Positions 9,634 through 22,278 of a DNA stretch of 64,000 nt are shown here, piece by piece (position 1 is the stretch's first letter; each line of letters opens with the position of its first letter). The position numbers were made by a program, and so were the translations under genes. The stretch covers positions 18,315-82,314 of the forward strand of contig DATDXN010000016.1 of NCBI GenBank assembly GCA_035289305.1, in the 5' to 3' direction. The DNA comes from Patescibacteria group bacterium (GTDB lineage Bacteria; Patescibacteriota; Microgenomatia; UBA1406; HO2-37-13b). A model generated the notes under the pieces. That model saw only the letters and a list, made by a program, of their open reading frames with translations, was not told the origin of the DNA and did not search any database.

Positions 9634-10910
9634 CGAGACGTCAAAATAGCCTCCAATTCTTTCACAAATGAAATATTTTTGTATGAAAATATGTGCGAGA
9701 AACCAAAACGCTCTGCATCGCGCATGATTTTTGCCTGACGTATGACTTTGCGTACCTCTCCCAAAAGCCCCACCTCACCGACAAACACCGATTTTTCAGG
9801 AGCGGGAATATTTTTGAATGAGGAAATAACCGAGGCAATAACTCCCAAATCTGCGGCAGTTGATTTGATCGAAATGCCACCGACAACGTTGACATAGATA
9901 TCGTAGCGATCAAGCGGTAACCCCATGTTTTTGCGAACGACTGCCAGAAGCAACAGTAATTTATTGTAGTCTATGCCCGATGATACTCGACGAGGGATGG
10001 TCAGGAAACTTTCAACCACCAACGTCTGCACTTCAAAAAAAAGAGGGCGATTGCCTTCTGCCACTCCCACGAGTACTTTGCCCGGAGCTCTTTTTGTCTC
10101 CTCATCCAAAAACATGGTAGATCCTGAAGCCTCTACAAATCCTTTTTCCTTCATCTCAAAAATTCCGACCTCATCTGTTGAACCAAATCGGTTTTTATGT
10201 GCTCGCAAAATCCGAAATTGCGACTGACGGTCTCCTTCAAAATACAAAACAACATCTACAACATGCTCAAGTAGTTTGGGTCCGGCAATACCTCCTTCTT
10301 TTGTCACGTGACCGATCATAATGACTGAAATATTGTTTTTTTTGGCAAAGTCAATGACTTGTGCGGCAATTTCTTTAATCTGCGCAGGAGCACCGGGAGA
10401 AGCTTCAATTTTTTTGGAATACACCGTTTGGATAGAATCAATGACGATGATGTCATAGATATTTTTTTTCTCACCCGCAGCCTCCAAAATTCCCTCAATT
10501 TGCACGTCATCGGAAAAATAGATGTGGGCAAGATCAACCCCCGTACGCTCTGCACGCTCTTTCACCTGTTCGCCAGACTCCTCACCGGAGACATAAAGAG
10601 TTTTCATTCCCGAAAAAGATGTCAAAAGAAGGGTCGATTTTCCAATGCCCGGGTCACCGCTTAAAAGGACGACAGATCCTTGAGCAAATCCACCCCCCAA
10701 AACACGGTCAAACTCGAAGAAGCGAGTTTTTTTGCGCTCACGCGTACGGCTTGTAACCTTCGAAAGAGAGATAATTGTTGCTTTTTTCGTTTCTTCCCCC
10801 ACCCCTATTTCTTTTTGTTCACGCATCATATTCCACTCTCCACAGGAGGGACATTTACCATACCACGAAGCTGAACCATATCCACACGAAGCGCAAATAA
10901 ACAATGACAT
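9627..10910 (-). CDS. radA: DNA repair protein RadA/Sms
   Basis: N-terminal C4 zinc finger (CASCGY...CPSCGEW), RecA-like Walker A GDPGIGKST, and a Lon-like C-terminal domain. Confidence 0.9.
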   Translation of the reverse strand: MSLFICASCGYGSASWYGKCPSCGEWNMMREQKEIGVGEETKKATIISLSKVTSRTRERKKTRFFEFDRVLGGGFAQGSVVLLSGDPGIGKSTLLLTSFSGMKTLYVSGEESGEQVKERAERTGVDLAHIYFSDDVQIEGILEAAGEKKNIYDIIVIDSIQTVYSKKIEASPGAPAQIKEIAAQVIDFAKKNNISVIMIGHVTKEGGIAGPKLLEHVVDVVLYFEGDRQSQFRILRAHKNRFGSTDEVGIFEMKEKGFVEASGSTMFLDEETKRAPGKVLVGVAEGNRPLFFEVQTLVVESFLTIPRRVSSGIDYNKLLLLLAVVRKNMGLPLDRYDIYVNVVGGISIKSTAADLGVIASVISSFKNIPAPEKSVFVGEVGLLGEVRKVIRQAKIMRDAERFGFSHIFSYKNISFVKELEAILTSRH

Positions 10911-10948
10911 TGCATCTATTCTAACAAAAAAAAGATTCTCTATTGACC

Positions 10949-10977
10949 TTGAAATATTGTAGAGGATGCGTTACAAT
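10949..10977 (+). promoter_or_regulatory. Sigma-70-like promoter for the 11003 gene
   Basis: TTGAAA (10949-10954), a 17-nt spacer, then TACAAT (10972-10977). It lies 26 nt upstream of the ATG. Confidence 0.4.
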
Positions 10978-11002
10978 ACACCTCCAAATTAGTTATAAAC
11001 AT

Positions 11003-12865
11003 ATGAATCGGAAAGAATTACCACCACCCACTACCCAACCGCATATCAAAATAATAAAAGAAGTGCCTGCTCTTTCTCCTATCGAGAAACGTCTCGTCCA
11101 CAGTGCGGTGAATGAAAATATAGACCAAGGAGTAGATCCAAAAGAAACCCATCAGAGAGGACAATACACCGAAGAAAGAATTCTTTTCCTGAAACTTAAT
11201 CTTCCTCCTTCATATAATTTTCAAGAAGTTCTTGAAACAATATATCCCAAATCTCTCGAGGATTCTGGTAATACTACAGCAAAAGAAAAACCCACAATAC
11301 CATGGCTTGCAGCAAAACCTTTCTCCACCGAAGATGAACAAGAAATAAAAAAATTATTGCCTCGCCTAGTGCTTGATGATCCAGTATATGAAGAAACATT
11401 GGACCTACCCGATTTTCCTCTATATGCCGTAAGCACTCTCCTCACTTCTGAAACGTATGAAAAAGCTCATGAAAAAATGGTGAAGACTATAAGAAAATAT
11501 ATACACGAAGCAATCGGGAATAGAGGGGAAATCGTCCTTACGGAAATACTTGAGGGAAATTCTCGTTTTGTAAAAGGAGCCCTCATCCAACAAGACATAC
11601 GCCATGCACTTTTTGGACAACCAACAGAGGATGGAGGATTTTATTATCGTCATCCGACGGTATTTCTCAGATGGGTTAACCAGTGTCATGATCGAAAAGC
11701 TCTGAAAGAAGTAATGGGTGTAATGGGTATAGAATCAAAAGAAAACGAAAAAATTCGTGGTCTTTTATTGCATACGTTTGCAATGCCTGCGCAAGAAGGA
11801 ATACATACACATATTCGAAATAGTCAAGATGACTCACGCATACGCCCCTCCTCACAAACAATAATGATGGCAATCGGAGAAAGCAATCTACCTGATATAT
11901 CATCTATGGAAAAAACCATACAAGAAACACTTCAAAAAAAATACTTACCTTCTCAATCATGTTGTTCTATCGAAGTAGCGCCACTTCCTGAAGCGAGTGG
12001 AAATTTCTATTATAAAATTCCAACGAGGAGTATAGAAGATACTTTCTCGATGTTGCAACAATCTGTTTCACTCATGGACTCCCTTAAAGAAAAGGGGTTG
12101 CTGCATCCGCTTACCGGAATGCCCCTTCGCACTGGCACAATGCTTGAATTTGAAAATCTAAACGATACAGAACGGAAAGTTTTGTTGCATTCATTCGCAG
12201 CACTCACTTGTGCATTATGGCTCTCTATCAGTCCTGTTGATCGACTAGAACATTTTCTTCAAGCCCAACGAAATTCCTTAATCGGCCATGATGATCATGG
12301 CAACGGAAGGTATGTCATATATAACAAGCTTCCCTTCGTAACTGATATGCTTTCTTTTGATGTGGCTCGTTTAGAGACGTTATTTACAGCGCATGTTGCG
12401 GAAACTTATAAACAAAATGGAATTGAGGACGCACGACAAACGATGAAGGAAATAATAGATGCTATCGGTGAAAACCTCATATCGCTCAATCGCTCTCCTG
12501 TAAATATAGAGTCTTTGCAAGATGTATATTCACTTTTGGGAGTAAAGTATGATGATAAATGTCATGAAACTATGGTGGGTCTTGTATCTGATCATCGACG
12601 AAAAATTGGAAACAACAGCGATCGTATACAACGTTTCTCTCGCGCATTGAAACGGGCGAAAAAAGAAAGTGCAGAAGAAAAAATACGAAAAATAGAAACT
12701 CTCCTTCATGATCTTGAAAACAGCAAGGTATACATTGACGATTATTTTCTTTTGGGGAAAGAGGGACGAAACAGGCTCGCCGGTAAGATCATAGAGATTT
12801 TGAAAGATGCGATAACTGCAACGGTAGGTAAAAAAAGAGGTGGCGTAGATTTTTCCTCTCTCTGA
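11003..12865 (+). CDS. Hypothetical protein (about 620 aa, no recognisable domains)
   Basis: Long intact ORF with a hydrophilic, charged sequence. The start is taken at MNRKELPPP; the upstream TTG in the ORF track is unlikely. Confidence 0.55.
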   Translation: MNRKELPPPTTQPHIKIIKEVPALSPIEKRLVHSAVNENIDQGVDPKETHQRGQYTEERILFLKLNLPPSYNFQEVLETIYPKSLEDSGNTTAKEKPTIPWLAAKPFSTEDEQEIKKLLPRLVLDDPVYEETLDLPDFPLYAVSTLLTSETYEKAHEKMVKTIRKYIHEAIGNRGEIVLTEILEGNSRFVKGALIQQDIRHALFGQPTEDGGFYYRHPTVFLRWVNQCHDRKALKEVMGVMGIESKENEKIRGLLLHTFAMPAQEGIHTHIRNSQDDSRIRPSSQTIMMAIGESNLPDISSMEKTIQETLQKKYLPSQSCCSIEVAPLPEASGNFYYKIPTRSIEDTFSMLQQSVSLMDSLKEKGLLHPLTGMPLRTGTMLEFENLNDTERKVLLHSFAALTCALWLSISPVDRLEHFLQAQRNSLIGHDDHGNGRYVIYNKLPFVTDMLSFDVARLETLFTAHVAETYKQNGIEDARQTMKEIIDAIGENLISLNRSPVNIESLQDVYSLLGVKYDDKCHETMVGLVSDHRRKIGNNSDRIQRFSRALKRAKKESAEEKIRKIETLLHDLENSKVYIDDYFLLGKEGRNRLAGKIIEILKDAITATVGKKRGGVDFSSL

Positions 12866-13970: not shown

Positions 13971-16949
13971 TTATTGCCATGCTTCACAATTAATTCGAAA
14001 CGGACAAAAATCACACCATGGCCCGACGTTTGCCGCAAATAACCCTTTCTGTATCTGCGAAATCGTATTTTTTACCACTGCCTTTGCTTCTTCAATGTCC
14101 TCCGGCTTTTTTTTCGTTGAGAATACATCTGCATCTTGTAGGAAGTGAAAAGTCAGCGTAATATCATCAACGGGTTTTGCGTAAAAACTTTTATCAGACA
14201 CAGCCAATGCGTAGAGACTCATCTGTAGATTTTTTTTCAAGGCAGGTAGCGTTGGTTTTTTTCCAGTTTTATAATCAATGATTTCCAGCCCTCCATCTTT
14301 TCGCGCATCAACCCTGTCTATTTTCCCACTGATAAATGTAGTTTCATCTATCTTCACGGTAAATCGTTTTTCAAGATCAAGAATTGAGAGATTATCCGTA
14401 TGATAGCGCATAAAAAAACTCTGCAACATCTTCTTTCCCTCTTTTTTCATTTTTTCCTCATGGGTCCTGGAAACATATCCCAATGGCAACCAACACATTT
14501 CATAAAACGTAAAAAGATCATCAAGCGTTACTCTGCCGACTTTTTTGAGAAACAGATAAAACTTCTGCAAAGCTCTATGAATACTGTCTCCAAAAGAGGC
14601 AGCTGCTGATGGCAAAGTAGGGATTTTTAAGACATACTGATATTTATAACGTAAGGGACATGTCTTATACGACTCAATCTGTGAATAGGAAAGCCGCGAC
14701 GGAACGGGACGAGAAAAAACAGGCTCTTTGTCTTTTTTTTCTTCATGTTTCTTAAAATCAACCCCGATTGAATCGGGATCAGCTCCAATGAGATCGGGAT
14801 CAAAAATCGAGAGCTGTGATTTTTCTTCCTTTTGCCTGTGGGTAAGTCTTTGGACAAAATCTTCACCCATTGCCTCAACGACAAATGGTGAAACTTTGCG
14901 CATCCGCCTGCCCTCGCCGTAGTTAAGACTTGACGTAAAATATACTTTGTCCCGGGCGCGCGTCACCCCCACATAAAAAAGCCTGCGCTCTTCCTCAAGA
15001 TGATAATCACCCTCTGGCAGTATTTCTTTGATAAGCTCATCGGGAATGGGGATCGGCTCTCGCCGCTCTCGTGTGGGAAACCGATCAAGCGTCAGATTGA
15101 CCAAAAAGACGACTTTAAATTCCATACCCTTTGCAGAATGTACAGTAAGAATGTTGACCGCATCGCGCTCGCTTATATCAAGTTCAGGCACGAGGGGGGA
15201 CTCTTTAAACTCCATACACATGTGGATGAAATCAACCGCCGCCTCTACCGATGCGTCTTCCTGCCTGACCTCACGTGTTTTTAAAAACTCGAAAAATCGA
15301 GAGATATTGACCACTTTTCGCTCGTCCTTCGCTGTCTTTGCTGATGCAAGATAGGATAAATATCCTGATTCTTCGAGGAAAAAGTAGAGAATCTGACCTA
15401 CTGTTTCTTTTGAAAAAAGGGAAAGCGCTCGCTCAACAATGCCATAGATTTTCTTGATTGTCTCTTTGGTCTCCTGCCGTGTGATAAAAAGCTCCCTCCG
15501 GTAGATCTCAAATTCGCTGCGTGCGTATTCTGTGTAGAAAAATGAAAGATACACGTGCATAGCCTCAAAAAGTGAGAGACTTGTCCGTTTGGCAAATGAG
15601 ATAAAACGCGCTACGTCTTTCTCATCAAGGTGGAAAATATCCATGGAGATCACACGGTAAAAACTCGCTGAATCAGAAACATCTGTCAAAAAAGTAAGAT
15701 ATGCAATAAGATCCTTGATTTCTGGTTGCTTGAAAAGCATACCCTGCCCCAAAAATTGAAAAGGAATTCCATGTCGCTCAAATGTATGAGCAAAAGGATC
15801 TGCGTGGCTATTGGCACGCATCAAAAGAGCGATATCGCGATACTTGTATCCTTTTGTGATCAATTCCTGGATTTTCTCTGCGACGTATTCGCATTCTTTG
15901 GTGATATGAGGGGCGACAAAAAGTGAAACGCTTTCACCGTTTCCCTTACCTGTCATGCTTTTGAGGTTTTTTGAAATATTGAGTCTGCTTTCCAATGTGT
16001 CGGGATTATTGTGCGTGATGACGCGGTAGGCAATATCAAGAATGTGTTGATTTGATCGGTAATTCTCAAGGAGTACCATCTGTTTTGCTTGGCCGTAATC
16101 TTTCATGAACTGAAGAATATTTGAAACGGAGGCACCTCGAAACTTATAGATGCTTTGATTATCATCTCCGATGACTGAAAGCTTCGGCTGTTCTTGAGGC
16201 GGGGCGAGGAGCTTAATCAGCTCATATTGAGCAATATTAGTGTCTTGAAACTCATCAACAAGAATATATTTAAACCGCGCCTTGTACTTCTCTTTGATAT
16301 TTTGGCGGGCGCGAAAAAGCTTCACGGTATAAAAAATAAGATCTGCAAAATCCATGATAGTATCTTTCAATTTAATATCTTGAAATACCGTATACGCATG
16401 TGCTAATTCAGTGTTTTTCTTCACATCGGGACTTTCGACTTTATGGACTTTTTCCTGTGCACGTGCCCATTTCATATAGTTTTCCGGCGCAATGTCTTCG
16501 TCTCGAAGGCGCGAAAAATGTTGGATCAATCCTTCGATAAATTTATAGGGGTTTCCTAGAGGACGGAAATAGTCGAGATTGAACAAAAACAGTTTTTTTT
16601 GAAGATAGATGATTGATTGAGCCTGCGTATAAAGCTTATATTCGGGGGAAAGACCCATATGCATCCCGTCTTCTTTCAAAACACCGTCGCAAAAAGAGTG
16701 AAATGTGGCGATATGTGTCTGAAAATATCCATAAGGAAGTATTTTATCCACTCGCTCCTCAATTTCGTTCACTGCCTTTTCCGTGAAGGTAAGCGCCAGA
16801 ATCTCATCGGGACGGGCGAGTTTGTGAGCAATGAGATATTTAATCTTTTCAACTAGTACGGTGGTTTTGCCAGTTCCTGCTCCGGCGATGATGAGAAGCG
16901 GTCCATCATTGTATACAACTGCCTGTTTCTGCGAATGAGTCAACTTCAC
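13971..16949 (-). CDS. UvrD/PcrA-like helicase fused to a RecB-family PD-(D/E)XK nuclease with a C-terminal Cys cluster (AddA/AddB-like)
   Basis: N-terminal IIAGAGTGKTTVL UvrD motif I. C-terminal GKIDRVD...IIDYKTG nuclease motifs and a CDFCPFRINC cluster. Confidence 0.85.
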   Translation of the reverse strand: MKLTHSQKQAVVYNDGPLLIIAGAGTGKTTVLVEKIKYLIAHKLARPDEILALTFTEKAVNEIEERVDKILPYGYFQTHIATFHSFCDGVLKEDGMHMGLSPEYKLYTQAQSIIYLQKKLFLFNLDYFRPLGNPYKFIEGLIQHFSRLRDEDIAPENYMKWARAQEKVHKVESPDVKKNTELAHAYTVFQDIKLKDTIMDFADLIFYTVKLFRARQNIKEKYKARFKYILVDEFQDTNIAQYELIKLLAPPQEQPKLSVIGDDNQSIYKFRGASVSNILQFMKDYGQAKQMVLLENYRSNQHILDIAYRVITHNNPDTLESRLNISKNLKSMTGKGNGESVSLFVAPHITKECEYVAEKIQELITKGYKYRDIALLMRANSHADPFAHTFERHGIPFQFLGQGMLFKQPEIKDLIAYLTFLTDVSDSASFYRVISMDIFHLDEKDVARFISFAKRTSLSLFEAMHVYLSFFYTEYARSEFEIYRRELFITRQETKETIKKIYGIVERALSLFSKETVGQILYFFLEESGYLSYLASAKTAKDERKVVNISRFFEFLKTREVRQEDASVEAAVDFIHMCMEFKESPLVPELDISERDAVNILTVHSAKGMEFKVVFLVNLTLDRFPTRERREPIPIPDELIKEILPEGDYHLEEERRLFYVGVTRARDKVYFTSSLNYGEGRRMRKVSPFVVEAMGEDFVQRLTHRQKEEKSQLSIFDPDLIGADPDSIGVDFKKHEEKKDKEPVFSRPVPSRLSYSQIESYKTCPLRYKYQYVLKIPTLPSAAASFGDSIHRALQKFYLFLKKVGRVTLDDLFTFYEMCWLPLGYVSRTHEEKMKKEGKKMLQSFFMRYHTDNLSILDLEKRFTVKIDETTFISGKIDRVDARKDGGLEIIDYKTGKKPTLPALKKNLQMSLYALAVSDKSFYAKPVDDITLTFHFLQDADVFSTKKKPEDIEEAKAVVKNTISQIQKGLFAANVGPWCDFCPFRINCEAWQ

Positions 16950-16963
16950 GTAATGATTATATA

Positions 16964-19336
16964 TTACGACTCACTTAAATATTTATTCAACATTTCTCGT
17001 ATCATATCTAATTGTTCTTTTCTTGCTTTGTTTGGTGATGTGTTCGTTCTTAATTTGTAGCAAAATTGTTTCATGTAAGTAGCAATCGTTCTTTCTCCTA
17101 ATCCAAACTCTTTTCCCACCTTTTCAAAACTATCACCGTCGAAAAATACCCTCTTTACTATTTGTCCGTCACGGGGACTTAATATCATTTCTATCAATTT
17201 CTCAAGTTCTCTTCTAATAGCATACCTATTATGCTTGCGAACAATATATGGCTCGTATAGAGTCAGATCTATCTGCGCATTCCTTCTGTTAATATATGCT
17301 TTTATAAGAGACCTTCCAATTTCTGTCTCCTGCGCTAATTCTTCTGTTAGCGATTCGATCTCATCGTGTGGAATTCCGCAAGGATGCAATTTTAAAACAA
17401 CATCAATCCTATCTCTTACTTTTTCGTATGGAAGTGTTTTATGCCTACTGCGTAAAACCATACCAATGCCCATTTGTTCTTCCTTCGCGATATAAGAAGC
17501 CGCTGCGGCACGTGCGTCATAAAAAACTTGTTGAGGACTATAATATTTCGTTTTCACTTTCATAGCTTTTTCTGTTAACTTTCTCTGAATTGCAGCAATA
17601 GCTTCATGGAGCATTTCTTCATTATCATGCGCATTTTTTGACTTATATCCTTCAACTCCGTTCATAATAGTTTTTAAGTTTAAAAGCAAAAAAACAGTAC
17701 GTCCAGCAGATGAAACATTTGTATCAATGCTTGCCATCGCTTGTAGAATTTGACGTTGAGTTTCAGTTCTCACAAAATATGGCAAAGCCTTTACCATTAA
17801 TTCGTAAAAATCGAAAGAAGAGATACCGGGATTTTTATCATATATTTCCGAAGCAACGTGATTGATTGCAGCTGCAATTTCTATGATTGATCCACCCTTT
17901 AAATGTTTTCTCAAAAGCGACCGTGCTTGCACTGAATCTATCACTGAATGAATCTTGCCTCCAAAAAACTGTATTCGTGCATCGCTTTTTACATTTTTTC
18001 CTCTTTGACTTTTTTCTTGCACACTGCCTATTTGTGTCCCGCGTAGAACATAATACGGATCGAAAATATCTGGAATAAGAATAGGCGCTTGTGTCGAACG
18101 GGTGAAATCATCAACCAATTGAATAGCAATGCTTTTATGTTTTTGCGTCTCTTCACATGGCCGCAAAATTCTTCCAAGCTCCTGCGTCGCTACGATGCCG
18201 GATTGTGTGGGAGCTAAAAATATTCCAACTTCTGTCTCCGGCGAATCCCACCCTAACTGCAACATATTAACACCGAGCACAACTTGCACCTCTCCATTTT
18301 TATGCGACTGCAAAATTTGTTCTCTCTGTTTATCAGAAAGTTTACCATGCACTGCTTGAGCAGATATCCCAAGTCTGCGAAGTTTGTCTGCCAATTGCTC
18401 AACATGATTAATTGATAAACCAAACACCACCGTTCTTTTTCCGCGAATTTTTTCGTGTATCGAAGTCATCTCATCTACTTGTTGAGGAATAAAAGATATG
18501 TTTGATGAAAGACTATGAAGACCTGCAAGTAGACCGATCGTCAAATAGTTTCGTTTCTCTGTATTAAGATATTTTTCCAATTGTCGTTGATCATACGCCC
18601 CTTCTGGAGATATAGTAATAGCGTCAACAGCCATATCAGTGGTGAAAAGATGCACATCCAATGATGTTAAGATGCCTTTTTCTATTGCCTCCTCAAGCGA
18701 CATTTCATGGATAAGGCGTGTAAATACGCCCAACCAATGTTCGTCGCCTTTTATAATATTTCGTTCTTTGTATCCCGCAAGTTGTTCGAAATAAGGCGTT
18801 GCGGTAAGTCCTATTTTGATTGCGTTTTGGGGGATATGTTTGAACAACGTATGCCTTTCCTCACCTAAAGCAGTATGTATTTCGTCACAAATAAGAAGTT
18901 CTATTTTGTTTGTGTCGATTTTTTGCTGTTCAATGAGTTTGAGAAAAGACGTATAGGTAGTATTTAATGTTTGTCGTCCTAGATTTTTTTCAGCAGTATA
19001 ATAATTACCCACTTCTACGTGAGAAGCAAAATTTTCCATTGCACGATGTGTTTGCAGAAGAATAGGACGAGTGGGTGAAAGAATAACGGTATTCAAGTTC
19101 ATTGCTCCGATGAGTTCTGCTGCGACAACGGTCTTTCCAAATCCCGTAGGCAAACTTAAATATCCCGCAATATCGCCTTTTTTCAAAGAATCAAGCACTG
19201 ATTGTGCGACTGGTTTTTGGTGCTCTCGCAGCCTACTTTCTTGAGACGCATCTAAGTATCTGGTAAGACCCTCAATTGCCTTTTCGCAAGGAGCAACTAC
19301 CCTCCCTTGCTCTGGAACAACATATCTCTCCAACAT
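16964..19336 (-). CDS. SF2 DEAH-type helicase with a C-terminal sigma-70 region-4-like HTH
   Basis: LPTGFGKT (motif I), LICDEIH (motif II), GLTATP, and QELGRILR (motif VI). The C-terminus LSPRDGQIVKRVFFDGDSFEKVGKEFGLGERTIATYMKQFCYKLR parallels the rpoD region 4.2 in this window, [49 protein letters not shown]. Confidence 0.7.
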   Translation of the reverse strand: MLERYVVPEQGRVVAPCEKAIEGLTRYLDASQESRLREHQKPVAQSVLDSLKKGDIAGYLSLPTGFGKTVVAAELIGAMNLNTVILSPTRPILLQTHRAMENFASHVEVGNYYTAEKNLGRQTLNTTYTSFLKLIEQQKIDTNKIELLICDEIHTALGEERHTLFKHIPQNAIKIGLTATPYFEQLAGYKERNIIKGDEHWLGVFTRLIHEMSLEEAIEKGILTSLDVHLFTTDMAVDAITISPEGAYDQRQLEKYLNTEKRNYLTIGLLAGLHSLSSNISFIPQQVDEMTSIHEKIRGKRTVVFGLSINHVEQLADKLRRLGISAQAVHGKLSDKQREQILQSHKNGEVQVVLGVNMLQLGWDSPETEVGIFLAPTQSGIVATQELGRILRPCEETQKHKSIAIQLVDDFTRSTQAPILIPDIFDPYYVLRGTQIGSVQEKSQRGKNVKSDARIQFFGGKIHSVIDSVQARSLLRKHLKGGSIIEIAAAINHVASEIYDKNPGISSFDFYELMVKALPYFVRTETQRQILQAMASIDTNVSSAGRTVFLLLNLKTIMNGVEGYKSKNAHDNEEMLHEAIAAIQRKLTEKAMKVKTKYYSPQQVFYDARAAAASYIAKEEQMGIGMVLRSRHKTLPYEKVRDRIDVVLKLHPCGIPHDEIESLTEELAQETEIGRSLIKAYINRRNAQIDLTLYEPYIVRKHNRYAIRRELEKLIEMILSPRDGQIVKRVFFDGDSFEKVGKEFGLGERTIATYMKQFCYKLRTNTSPNKARKEQLDMIREMLNKYLSES

Positions 19337-19390
19337 AATACCCTATTATACCATAAAATTGTCTTATAGTAAATAGAGAACTATCGGGTA

Positions 19391-20479
19391 CTATTCAAGA
19401 AAATCGCGCAGTTTCTTGGCGCGCGTGGGGTGGCGAAGTTTGCGTATTGCTTTTGCCTCAATCTGCCTGATACGCTCTCTCGTGACGCGAAATTCTCTCC
19501 CCACTGCCTCAAGCGTCTTGGGCTTGCCGTCATCCAGCCCAAACCGCATAATAAGCACTTTTTTCTCGCGATCAGAAAGCGTATCAAGCACATCATTGAG
19601 ATAATCCTTCAAAAACTCCCGTGATACTTTATCATAGAGAGTCGGTTTATTCTGGTCGGATAAAAACTCCTCAAGCGTTGTTTCTTTATCATCGCCCACC
19701 GGCGTTGAAAGAGACTTGGGGTGCTGTGATATTTTAATCAAATTTTCAACTTCTTTGACCGAAATCCCGAGCTCTTTTGCAATCTCTTTGGTCGTTGCGT
19801 CTCTTCCCAATTTTTGTGTGAGACGTCGCTGTGTCTTGTAGTACCTGTTGATATGATCGACCATGTGTACCGGAATGCGTATCGTACGCGACTGATCTGC
19901 AATAGCGCGCGTGATCGCCTGCCGTATCCACCATGTCGCATAGGTTGAGAATTTATACCCCCGTCGCCAGTCGTATTTCTCAACCCCCTTGATAAGTCCC
20001 TGGTTGCCTTCTTGAATAAGATCCAAGAAAGACAACCGTCTCCCCAGATATTTTTTGGCAATTGAGACCACTAGTCGAAGATTCGATTTAATGAGTTTCT
20101 CACGAGCTGCCAGATCATCTTTTTCATATCTTTTTGCGAGAGACACTTCTTCCTTAAACGTCAGCAAGGGGTATCTACCGATTTCGCGAAGATACATCTT
20201 GATCGGATCCAAAGACTCGCCTTGTTTGAGCGTGATAATCTGTTTGAGCTCTTTCTCAAGCTCCTCAACTGTCTTTTTACTATCCTCATCCTCTGTTGAA
20301 ACATTTTCAAAAATATCAATATTTTTTTTGATTGCTTTGTCAAAAAGATCATCTATCTCATTAATATGATGCTCTGGATCAGAATACACGAAAAAAATAT
20401 CATCAAGCACTAAAAATCCATTTTCCTCGCCTTGTCTCAAGAGCTCTTTGACGTTCTTGGGAATTTTTTGGATACTCAT
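19391..20479 (-). CDS. rpoD: RNA polymerase sigma factor RpoD (sigma-70)
   Basis: Contains [35 protein letters not shown] and region 4.2. Confidence 0.95.
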
Positions 20480-20490
20480 GAGAGTATATT

Positions 20491-22278
20491 CTATATGAGA
20501 GAGAGCTTTTTTTCCACTTGTGATAGTTTGCGAAGGTAATCCTCAAGTCTGACATCGCTTTTTTCGGTTGCTCCTTCCTCCTTCATCATGTCCCTGATCT
20601 TCTTTTTGAGGGACATTCGTTTAAATTCAAGAAGAGGCTTTTCAAAATTTTTTTCCTCTACTTCTTCAAAGATAGCAATATCAAAAAGGACTATTTCATC
20701 AAAAACAGGCACAAGCTCTTTGGGAATGACATGAGCAAAAGCGTTGACAGAAAATGAGACCGGATGATCCTGACTGCAATAATCAAGAAGATGATTGACG
20801 AGTTTCCGATGAGAAGGAAGTGTAAAATCTTCTACATCTAAAACAGTCAGTGTCTTTTTTAGTATATGATCAGGATCTTTATGCTGAAAGATCGCGTGAA
20901 GGATATAGCGAGAAAGAATGTCGCGTCGGGAAATGCTACTGCGCTGTACTGTATGTGCGCTGGGCCGACGCCGCAAGGTAGTTTTTTGTTTTGCAATGGA
21001 CTTTCTGATCAAATCTTCTATCGATCTTTCATTCACCTGAAGAAGAGCGCTCATTTTTTTCAGATAATGTGATTTCACGATGGGATTTCTGATAAGCACA
21101 AGGAAGGGAATAACTTCCTCTGCAATGTTTTTTTTCGAGAACGCGTCTTCAATGCCATATTTTGCAAGCGCAGTTTCGATAACAAAATCATAAATAGCAA
21201 TGGGGCGCTCAATACTTTTCTTAAAAAGCTGTTTATCATGCGCAATTGCTTCATCTGGATCCTTCCCATTTGCAAATCGCGCAACCATTATTTCAAAATC
21301 AAGACTTTCTCCATCGAGTATCGCTTTTTTCGTCGTTGCAATTCCCGAAAAATCTGCATCCAAACATATAATGATTTTATTCGTGTACCGCTTCAGAAGC
21401 ATGAGTTGATCACGCGTCACAGCCGATCCTTTGACCGCAACCACATTGCCAATACCTATCTGAAAACAACTCATCGTATCAAACTCGCCCTCAACCACCA
21501 CAACCATCCCCTCTTTTTTGATCGCATCTTTTGCGATATGGATGCCAAAAAGCGTTTCGCGCTTATGATATATCGGTGTCTCTGGAGTATTGACATATTT
21601 TGCCTCTTTTGTAGGCGCGATCAGTCTCCCTGAAAAACCAACGATGTTTCCCGAGGCTAGAGTCAGCGGAAACATCACTCTCTTTCTGAAGCGATCATAA
21701 TATCGCCCGCCCGCACTTTTGATGACAAGACCTGCATCAACAATTTCCTCATCACGAAAGCCCTTTTTTTTCAAAAATGTGTGGAGCGAATTCCACGACG
21801 AAGGAGCATATCCCAGGCCAAACGTCTCAATGGTTTGTGCTCTTACACTTCGCTGTACTAGATATTGGCGTGCTTTTTCTCCAACCGTATGTTTCGTGAG
21901 TAAAAAGTGATAAAATTCTTGAGCAAGATGGTTGGCCGCAAGGAGTCGCTCTTTCTTTTTCCACTCCTTATCTTCAAACGACATACCTTCAAGCGATACG
22001 CCTGTTTTCTCGGCAAGTTCTCTTAAGATTTCGAAAAAAGGTCGTGCCTCCCATTTCATCAGAAACGCGATCACGTCCCCACCTGTTTGACACGCGCCAA
22101 AACATCTCCACGATTGCCGGTCGGGCGATATGATAAACGAAGGAGTCTTTTCCTGATGAAAAGGACACAAAGCTTTGAAGTTCCGTCCCGCTTTTTTAAG
22201 AGTGATACATGACCCGATGATATCAACAATATCCACTCTTCTTTTTACCTCATCAACAACGGTATCCATACACCTCAC
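20491..22278 (-). CDS. dnaG: DNA primase
   Basis: Zinc-binding [11 protein letters not shown]...[13 protein letters not shown], a TOPRIM region (EGEFD) and an N-terminal RVDIVDIIG. Confidence 0.93.

Follow-up and report, generated by a model that had tools for sequence, protein, structure and literature searches.

An SF2 helicase joined to a divergent sigma-70-like scaffold in a patescibacterial genome: a possible RNA-polymerase-tethered motor

Introduction

What is the function of a helicase that ends like a sigma factor? The question is raised by a gene on the minus strand (positions 16964–19336) of a stretch of 64,000 nucleotides, here called the window, from the assembly GCA_035289305.1 of a Patescibacteria group bacterium (contig DATDXN010000016.1, positions 18,315 to 82,314). 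The genome has 0.9 Mb on 36 contigs and is 92.6% complete, Candidatus Levybacteria and Curtissbacteria are among the names of its relatives, and the DNA of the window is detected in groundwater and soil metagenomes. A first-pass annotation had described the gene product as a superfamily 2 (SF2) helicase carrying at its C-terminus a sigma region 4-like helix-turn-helix (HTH) of some 50 residues, had placed the gene in a dnaG-rpoD operon and had suggested that the protein, which it did not recognize as a described family, could be a remodeller associated with RNA polymerase (RNAP) or targeted to the −35 element of promoters.

We propose that in this protein an ATP-driven DNA motor of superfamily 2, from the neighbourhood of RadD, XPB and SauUSI, is covalently joined to a complete, divergent scaffold of the sigma-70 family, and that the protein may act as a motor tethered to RNAP, a reading to which we assign a probability of about 0.5. 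Association with RNAP is the best supported of the earlier ideas, the evidence being the sigma scaffold itself and a predicted contact with the clamp helices of the beta' subunit. Little work has been done on transcription in organisms with such minimal genomes.

The helicase half

The gene is a single uninterrupted open reading frame (ORF) of 790 codons; all features of the window given below with coordinates lie, like the ORF, on the minus strand. Its N-terminal part contains motif I (PTGFGKT at residues 63–69, with GKT at 67–69, read from the translation), motif II (DEIH, 151–154), motif III (TATP, 178–181) and motif VI (QxxGRxxR, 385–392), and the Pfam models of both RecA-like domains match above their cut-offs, ResIII (PF04851) at residues 35–182 (E = 3e-22) and Helicase_C (PF00271) at residues 290–392 (E = 3e-14). 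The core (residues 35–405, window 18122–19234) is therefore an SF2 helicase, as first annotated. Among 48 full-length homologues with 31–44% identity over the alignment, the set on which all conservation counts in this paper are based, K68, D151, E152, T178–P181, Q385, G388, R389 and R392 are invariant or more than 90% conserved. Both halves of the protein are intact and the ATPase motifs are conserved family-wide, which indicates that the ATPase is under selection.

To which SF2 helicases is the core related? A profile of the core compared with solved structures matched RadD best (E = 3e-33, over residues 36–400), followed by the SauUSI-like protein 7clg (1e-32), archaeal XPB/Rad25 (1e-26) and then Hef; UvrB and DEAD-box proteins were matched via the second RecA domain only. 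The scores against the NCBIfam equivalog models of RadD (NF053632; 90.2 bits vs a cut-off of 720) and XPB (NF045503; 64.7 bits vs a cut-off of 610) miss the cut-offs by far; the core is a DNA-type SF2 motor of this neighbourhood that belongs to neither family. Pfam SNF2-rel_dom (PF00176) is not listed for the ORF, and the match to SWI2_SNF2 (PF18766) is weak and below threshold. The core is followed by a segment specific to the family (residues 406–469, window 17930–18121), in which P418, L420, F425, P427, L431, G433, G437 and G459 are nearly invariant in the alignments of the homologues and to which no Pfam family matches.

Could the ORF be two genes joined by a sequencing error? The fused architecture of helicase and sigma-like part recurs in 80 representative clusters, which speaks against the frameshift considered at first. 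In addition, Logan contigs from two runs cover window positions 16500–19934 with zero differences and zero gaps; the frame and both junctions are thus not a peculiarity of one assembly, with the limit that the two runs are possibly the source samples and then not independent of the assembly. Since the fusion is common to homologues that share 31–44% identity, it must be old.

The sigma-like half

The HTH at the C-terminus (residues 719–763, window 17048–17182) is matched by Pfam Sigma70_r4 (PF04545) with 22.4 bits (E = 8.6e-5 on the 111-residue tail), and across runs with 22.4–23.0 bits (E from 6e-5 to 5e-4), slightly short of the gathering score, 24.1. The GerE/LuxR model (PF00196) reaches on the same residues 15.8–18.4 bits (17.7 where Sigma70_r4 has 22.4) vs a cut-off of 23.5, always less than Sigma70_r4, which also outscores the other HTH models on this C-terminus. 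Nearly all of the homologues listed carry a precomputed PF04545 match, and the consensus of the 48 homologues in this region reads ...RFGL..g...TLeEvG...[24 protein letters not shown]; in the copy of the window the RFGL motif is lost. From the sequences, the homology of the HTH to sigma region 4, rather than to a generic or LuxR-type HTH, is clear, though the copy of the window misses the curated threshold.

Region 4 is real, but the sigma-derived part is much longer than the 50 residues first proposed. As judged domain by domain from predicted structures, the C-terminal part of about 320 residues is a whole sigma1.2-2-3-4 scaffold, albeit a divergent one. A family profile of residues 470–785 matches structures of SigA/RpoD (E = 2e-36), and with SigA it aligns as one stretch over regions 2.1–4.2. 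The AF2 model of these residues is all-helical with a pLDDT of 91 and has the fold of a sigma factor: among the top 50 matches found with Foldseek and VIA there are only full-length sigma factors, which align in order from region 1.2 through region 4.2.

Because region 4 could carry the matches of the whole module, the remainder was also tested without it. Residues 470–632 (window 17441–17929), which comprise two N-terminal helices and a fold like that of sigma region 1.2/domain 2, were modelled alone with a pLDDT of 94. When this model was compared exhaustively by VIA with 48,161 chains, sigma domain 2 took all of the first 20 places, with Z from 9.5 to 6.0, to be read against a caution line for helical folds at Z of about 13; the best was sigma32 (Z 9.5, rmsd 2.9 Å over 114 residues), the others including HrdB, a region 1.2+2 fragment of RpoS, pro-sigmaK, Taq SigA and several ECF sigmas, and the first unrelated chain had a Z of 6.0. 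Foldseek with the sigma2-like domain alone yielded nothing at E ≤ 1e-3; its compact matches were to sigmaE region 2 only (4lup_C, TM 0.71 by target, rmsd 3.0 Å), among repeat proteins with high rmsd. By hhalign, the profile without region 4 aligned with regions 1.2–3 of the relatives' RpoD (P = 1.4e-4) with 2.1, 2.2, 2.3/2.4 and 3.0 in colinear order. Sigma region 2 gave no match in the window protein with Pfam (PF04542) or NCBIfam models, nor did Pfam Sigma70_r3. The case for the sigma2-like and sigma3-like parts thus rests on predicted structure. In the sigma2-like domain a motif around S536 and D538 (ASIDxN) is nearly invariant.

Between the sigma2-like domain and region 4 lies a sigma3-like segment of three helices (residues 636–687, window 17276–17431; helices 167–181, 188–202 and 206–218 of the 470–785 model), which hhalign places in register with region 3.0/3.1 of RpoD and which is also colinear with the full-length sigma chains. 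It is followed by a linker and a long helix (residues 688–718, window 17183–17275; model helix 222–249), which in the alignment with SigA take the place of regions 3.2/4.1. The protein ends with a tail (residues 764–790, window 16967–17047) for which one helix is predicted; at this position other family members have unrelated extensions of 100–444 residues, in which no Pfam family was found.

Did the module arise by a recent duplication of the adjacent rpoD? BLASTP of residues 440–790 against this RpoD gave nothing significant (E = 0.13), and this origin was rejected.

Sigma functions retained and lost

Which functions of a sigma factor could such a scaffold still perform? Residue retention in the 48 homologues was scored column by column against RpoD of the same genome. 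The glutamine of region 2.2 is conserved as Q in 27 of the 48 and is replaced by His in 11, including the copy of the window. The residues of regions 2.3/2.4 that melt and read the −10 element are essentially gone: the W-W dyad (W183/W184 of RpoD) has W in 0/48 homologues, the copy of the window having Y and D at these positions, and Y180, Q187 and T190 are retained in 4, 0 and 1 of the 48, respectively. The recognition helix of region 4 behaves differently. Its residues R334, E335, R336, R338 and Q339 (numbering of this genome's RpoD) are each retained in 17–38 of the 48 homologues. The −35 targeting suggested at first is, from these residues, plausible for most homologues; in the copy of the window, in which all of them are replaced, the specificity has probably changed or been lost.

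Does the scaffold contact RNAP? A complex of the sigma2-like domain with residues 325–460 of the beta' subunit of its own genome was predicted with an ipSAE of 0.76 (three runs, 0.72–0.79), above a mark that 58 of 80 solved complexes attain, as against 2 of 110 mismatched pairs; the best control value was 0.03. The runs had at least 47% of the contacts in common, and the partner pLDDT was at least 77. In the predicted interface the clamp helices (beta' residues 369–400) face residues 570–588, the region 2.2-like helix. Since sigma/beta' complexes have been solved already, the prediction may partly be memory, and it is to be taken as a likeness rather than as proof of binding.

The beta' subunit of this genome (contig C27, L032:1438–2817, plus strand) spans 420 residues over the 312 positions of the Rpb1 domain-1 model, which implies an insertion of about 100 residues upstream of the clamp helices that is common to relatives.

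Distribution of the module

A profile of the sigma1.2/2-like part alone retrieved 233 representative clusters from 1.84 billion proteins, and for 201 of these clusters the E-value was 1e-10 or lower. Among 171 module sequences examined, 80 are fused to the helicase and 91 are not; 36 of the latter are bare (about 300–380 residues) and another 36 have more than 100 residues after region 4. In most of the members checked Pfam detects region 4 alone. By Pfam, the module is also found fused to the C-terminal domain of the RNA polymerase alpha subunit (alpha-CTD; P0169), to NTPase_I-T (P0241) and to HEAT repeats (P0194), which suits a tether directed to RNAP. The module proteins are a previously unrecognized divergent branch of sigma-like proteins, enzyme-fused, in minimal-genome organisms.

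A second module protein, P0125 of 559 residues, is encoded in the genome of the window (contig C1, L002:724–2403, minus strand) between an rpiB-like and a ribulose-phosphate-epimerase-like gene. It matches residues 487–766 (E = 1e-13) and contains Sigma70_r4 (27.6 bits); the ESM Atlas groups its C-terminal 250 or so residues with class I SAM methyltransferases, a lead only. Besides RpoD the 0.9-Mb genome encodes two further ordinary sigma factors, one of 544 residues with regions 2-3-4 behind an N-terminal extension of 300 residues (contig C36, L028:1477–3111, minus strand) and one of 337 residues with regions 1.2, 2 and 4 (contig C29, L029:727–1740, plus strand).

Within the phylum the module is rare. 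Of 401 genomes sampled, that of the window is the only one with the module, and one other has a related helicase core without it. A homologue of the helicase-sigma fusion is encoded in one genome out of 40 from related members of the family and order; this homologue, from the same family, has 45% identity and is no closer than homologues of other lineages.

Gene neighbourhood

The gene is preceded on the same strand, at a distance of 54 nt, by rpoD (window 19391–20479; 362 residues, regions 1.1–4 by Pfam), before which lies dnaG (20491–22278); it is followed by a gene for a protein of 992 residues with a UvrD-like helicase and a PD-(D/E)XK nuclease by Pfam (13971–16949). The latter scores high against the PADLOC profiles GajB and RTasHel, as any UvrD-like helicase would. 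Within region 2 of rpoD (19904–20061) the depth of contigs rises about five-fold and assemblies break; the sequence words there are probably common to other organisms of the metagenomes, which would make this a feature of assembly rather than of biology.

Is linkage to dnaG and rpoD a trait of the family, as the first-pass annotation implied? In four homologue loci with the upstream side visible the neighbours differ and rpoD is next to none of them; differing housekeeping genes surround the gene in each of the homologue loci inspected. In same-family relatives the UvrD/PD-(D/E)XK gene comes directly after dnaG-rpoD, at a distance of 17 nt in one relative and of about 650 nt in two others. From this order the gene of the window looks like an insertion. 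No direct repeats were found at its borders.

Promoter-like sequence is present in the spacer between rpoD and the fusion gene. A consensus scan found TTTACT-17-TATAAT with an extended −10 (TG) at 19345–19373, ranking second of 33 such sites in 10 kb, where 23 ± 5.5 are expected by chance, and its −10 hexamer stops 8 nt short of the ATG, so that a transcript from this site would have a very short leader or none. The site is suggestive of a promoter of its own. No terminator-like site was found after rpoD, and co-transcription of the fusion gene with rpoD is neither shown nor excluded.

Proposed function and alternatives

On the predicted structures the fusion protein probably binds core RNAP via its sigma-like surfaces. 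The scaffold would dock in sigma fashion, its region 2.2-like helix contacting the clamp helices of beta' and its region 4 the beta flap, and the motor would be attached to the N-terminal end of the scaffold in place of sigma region 1.1. In holoenzyme structures region 1.1 is located beside the main DNA channel. With the sigma site thus occupied, an alternative holoenzyme or promoter complex could form, in which ATP-dependent translocation on, or unwinding of, promoter or downstream DNA would replace the work of the region 2.3 aromatics; these aromatics are lacking in the whole family. Between a role at promoters (initiation or remodelling) and the rescue of stalled polymerases we tentatively prefer the former, the reasons being that most homologues keep the −35-contacting residues and that the motor stands in the place of region 1.1. 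The proposal can be tested directly with purified proteins.

In its boldest form the proposal would be a bacterial initiation of the TFIIH/XPB type, in which a sigma-derived factor devoid of the −10-melting aromatics carries an XPB/RadD-like translocase instead of region 1.1 and opens the promoter at the expense of ATP, the scaffold serving CPR bacteria as a general adaptor of enzymes (helicase, methyltransferase, NTPase) to RNAP. This extension is speculative, and we consider it unlikely as a whole.

Several observations weigh against an RNAP-tethered motor that acts at promoters. The VIA scores of the sigma2-like domain (Z 8–9.5) lie under the caution line, though the match list is homogeneous, so that the sigma2 argument rests on the uniformity of this list and on the coverage of the domain. 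The sequence evidence for sigma2 and sigma3 without region 4 is modest, the hhalign probability being 52%, and a profile without region 4 found no significant sigma among PDB sequences (best SigW, E = 0.78). The copy of the window has a region 4 under the Pfam cut-off and retains none of the −35 residues of the RpoD recognition helix, and in the 48 homologues the W-W dyad is never retained and the other residues that read the −10 element essentially never. The family is rare, patchy and without conserved neighbours, which would also suit an accessory or conflict role. Finally, about 90 helicase-free members carry the same degenerate sigma2, which makes it less plausible that the helicase stands in for the lost melting residues and favours a general adaptor of enzymes to RNAP.

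The main rival is a motor that mimics sigma for rescue or recycling: it would dock on sigma-free core, be it stalled, post-termination or elongating, and push or strip the polymerase as do Mfd, RapA and HelD. The docking evidence fits this rival equally, and the loss of the −10 residues in all homologues and of the −35 residues in the copy of the window is to be expected of a protein that does not read promoters. Its niche may even be open, since a search of 31 genomes of the order for the RNAP-interaction domain of Mfd and CarD (CarD_TRCF_RID, PF02559) found it in none, and it was not found in the genome of the window either; matches to TIGR00580 (Mfd) in this genome lie elsewhere, on contigs C3 (343 bits vs a cut-off of 800) and C15, and are not the window gene. 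A sole rescue function would, however, not need the −35-contacting residues that most homologues keep, and the helicase-free members of the module family cannot work in this way. Mfd is missing order-wide, yet the fusion gene occurs in very few genomes, the two showing no complementary pattern. We judge this rival to be unlikely. That the gene compensates for the absence of Mfd was considered separately and rejected, because the lack of the domain in all 31 genomes leaves no contrast with the carriers of the fusion gene. Rho is present in the genome of the window.

Less likely still is an RNAP-independent helicase of repair, recombination or replication that has recruited the sigma half merely for binding to, or targeting of, DNA. 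The core is nearest to the repair helicases RadD, XPB and Hef, the gene adjoins that of the UvrD/PD-(D/E)XK protein with dnaG nearby, and its neighbours in the ESM Atlas include, as a lead only, phage helicases with a C-terminal Myb HTH. For DNA binding, however, region 4 would be needed at most, whereas the whole scaffold including the predicted beta'-binding helix is conserved; the neighbourhood is not conserved, and a module that is elsewhere fused to an alpha-CTD points to RNAP.

Could the gene instead have its origin in genetic conflict (defence, mobile element or phage), the sigma half being a decoy or sensor and the helicase an effector directed against foreign transcription or DNA? The occurrence of the module in 1 of 401 genomes of the phylum, there in two copies, the insertion into an otherwise conserved dnaG-rpoD-uvrD-like arrangement and a same-family homologue that is no closer than distant ones would fit, and the core resembles phage helicases (phrog_16, "DNA helicase", in PHROGs, E = 1e-47), PbeA and type IV restriction helicases. 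In PADLOC, however, the defence helicases align with the helicase core alone (positions 248–624 of the 672 of the PbeA profile; core of mREase_IV). No nuclease or other effector domain was found by Pfam, in each context examined the gene stands singly amid housekeeping genes, neither an island nor integrase, phage or partner genes being seen, and no repeats flank the gene. A tblastn search of INPHARED gave matches in 1281 records, all to the helicase core and with a query coverage of 57% at most, and in 80 IMG/VR loci the matches never passed residue 481 of the query, no helicase ORF there carrying the module. With these results a phage origin was rejected, and a conflict gene of any kind appears improbable. 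Three of the IMG/VR contigs (L110, L113 and L116, positions 10759–11934) contain an ORF of 392 codons that weakly matches the module in its region 3-4 part (E = 2e-4) and lies about 1.9 kb downstream of the SF2 helicase gene of the contig; in these contigs the helicase and the sigma-like protein are thus encoded apart.

That the sigma half is a decaying relic on a protein that functions as a helicase only, as the sub-threshold region 4 with all recognition-helix residues replaced and RFGL lost might suggest, is highly improbable, given that the ORF is intact over 790 codons, that the window copy's own sequence is modelled at a pLDDT of 91–94 and that the beta'-contact helix is retained.

Comparison with known systems

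Has such a protein been described before? No description of a helicase-sigma fusion or of the divergent sigma branch was found in the literature, in agreement with the first-pass annotation, but the architecture is already in databases, and the label "sigma-70 family RNA polymerase sigma factor" has been given to some members by the automated annotation of NCBI and JGI. The ESM Atlas contains a cluster of 658 residues with 141 members, mostly with viral labels, that combines ResIII with Sigma70_r4, and clusters from Actinomycetota (865 and 1069 residues) that combine Sigma70_r1_2/r2 with DEAD/ResIII/Helicase_C; both are leads without alignment or E-value. The Actinomycetota clusters differ in that their region 2 is recognized by Pfam, and they may be independent fusions.

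With RpoD/SigA the scaffold shares the order of regions 1.2, 2, 3 and 4, a sigma2 fold (rmsd about 3 Å over about 114 residues), a nearly identical region 4 consensus in the homologues, including the RKLRHPsRS tail, and the predicted interface of the region 2.2-like helix with the beta' clamp helices. It differs from RpoD/SigA in that an SF2 helicase of 465 residues replaces region 1.1, that the melting and −10 residues of regions 2.3/2.4 are missing in the family, that Pfam Sigma70_r2 and Sigma70_r3 do not match, and that region 4 of the copy in the window has diverged.

RadD (YejH of E. coli), archaeal XPB/Rad25 and SauUSI, the best solved matches of the core, are all DNA-dependent SF2 motors with a motif II of the DExH type. 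Their accessory domains are not detected by Pfam in the window protein, and they themselves have no sigma module.

With Mfd, RapA/HepA, HelD and UvrD/PcrA the fusion protein would share a principle, that of an NTP-driven motor held on RNAP by a dedicated docking domain. The known motors are anchored by an RNAP-interaction domain (RID), by SNF2-associated domains, by arms reaching into the secondary channel or by a Tudor-like C-terminal domain, whereas the anchor of the fusion protein would be a sigma-like scaffold.

TFIIH with its XPB subunit, in eukaryotic and archaeal initiation, and sigma54 with its AAA+ activators couple ATP hydrolysis to promoter opening by a motor that acts on the initiation machinery. 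The parallel with the fusion protein is one of analogy only, since the tether is not homologous and ATP-dependent opening by the fusion is hypothetical. Textbooks present bacterial initiation of the sigma-70 type as the case in which promoters are melted without ATP; a DNA motor on a full sigma scaffold, if true, would be a new way of coupling ATP hydrolysis to RNAP.

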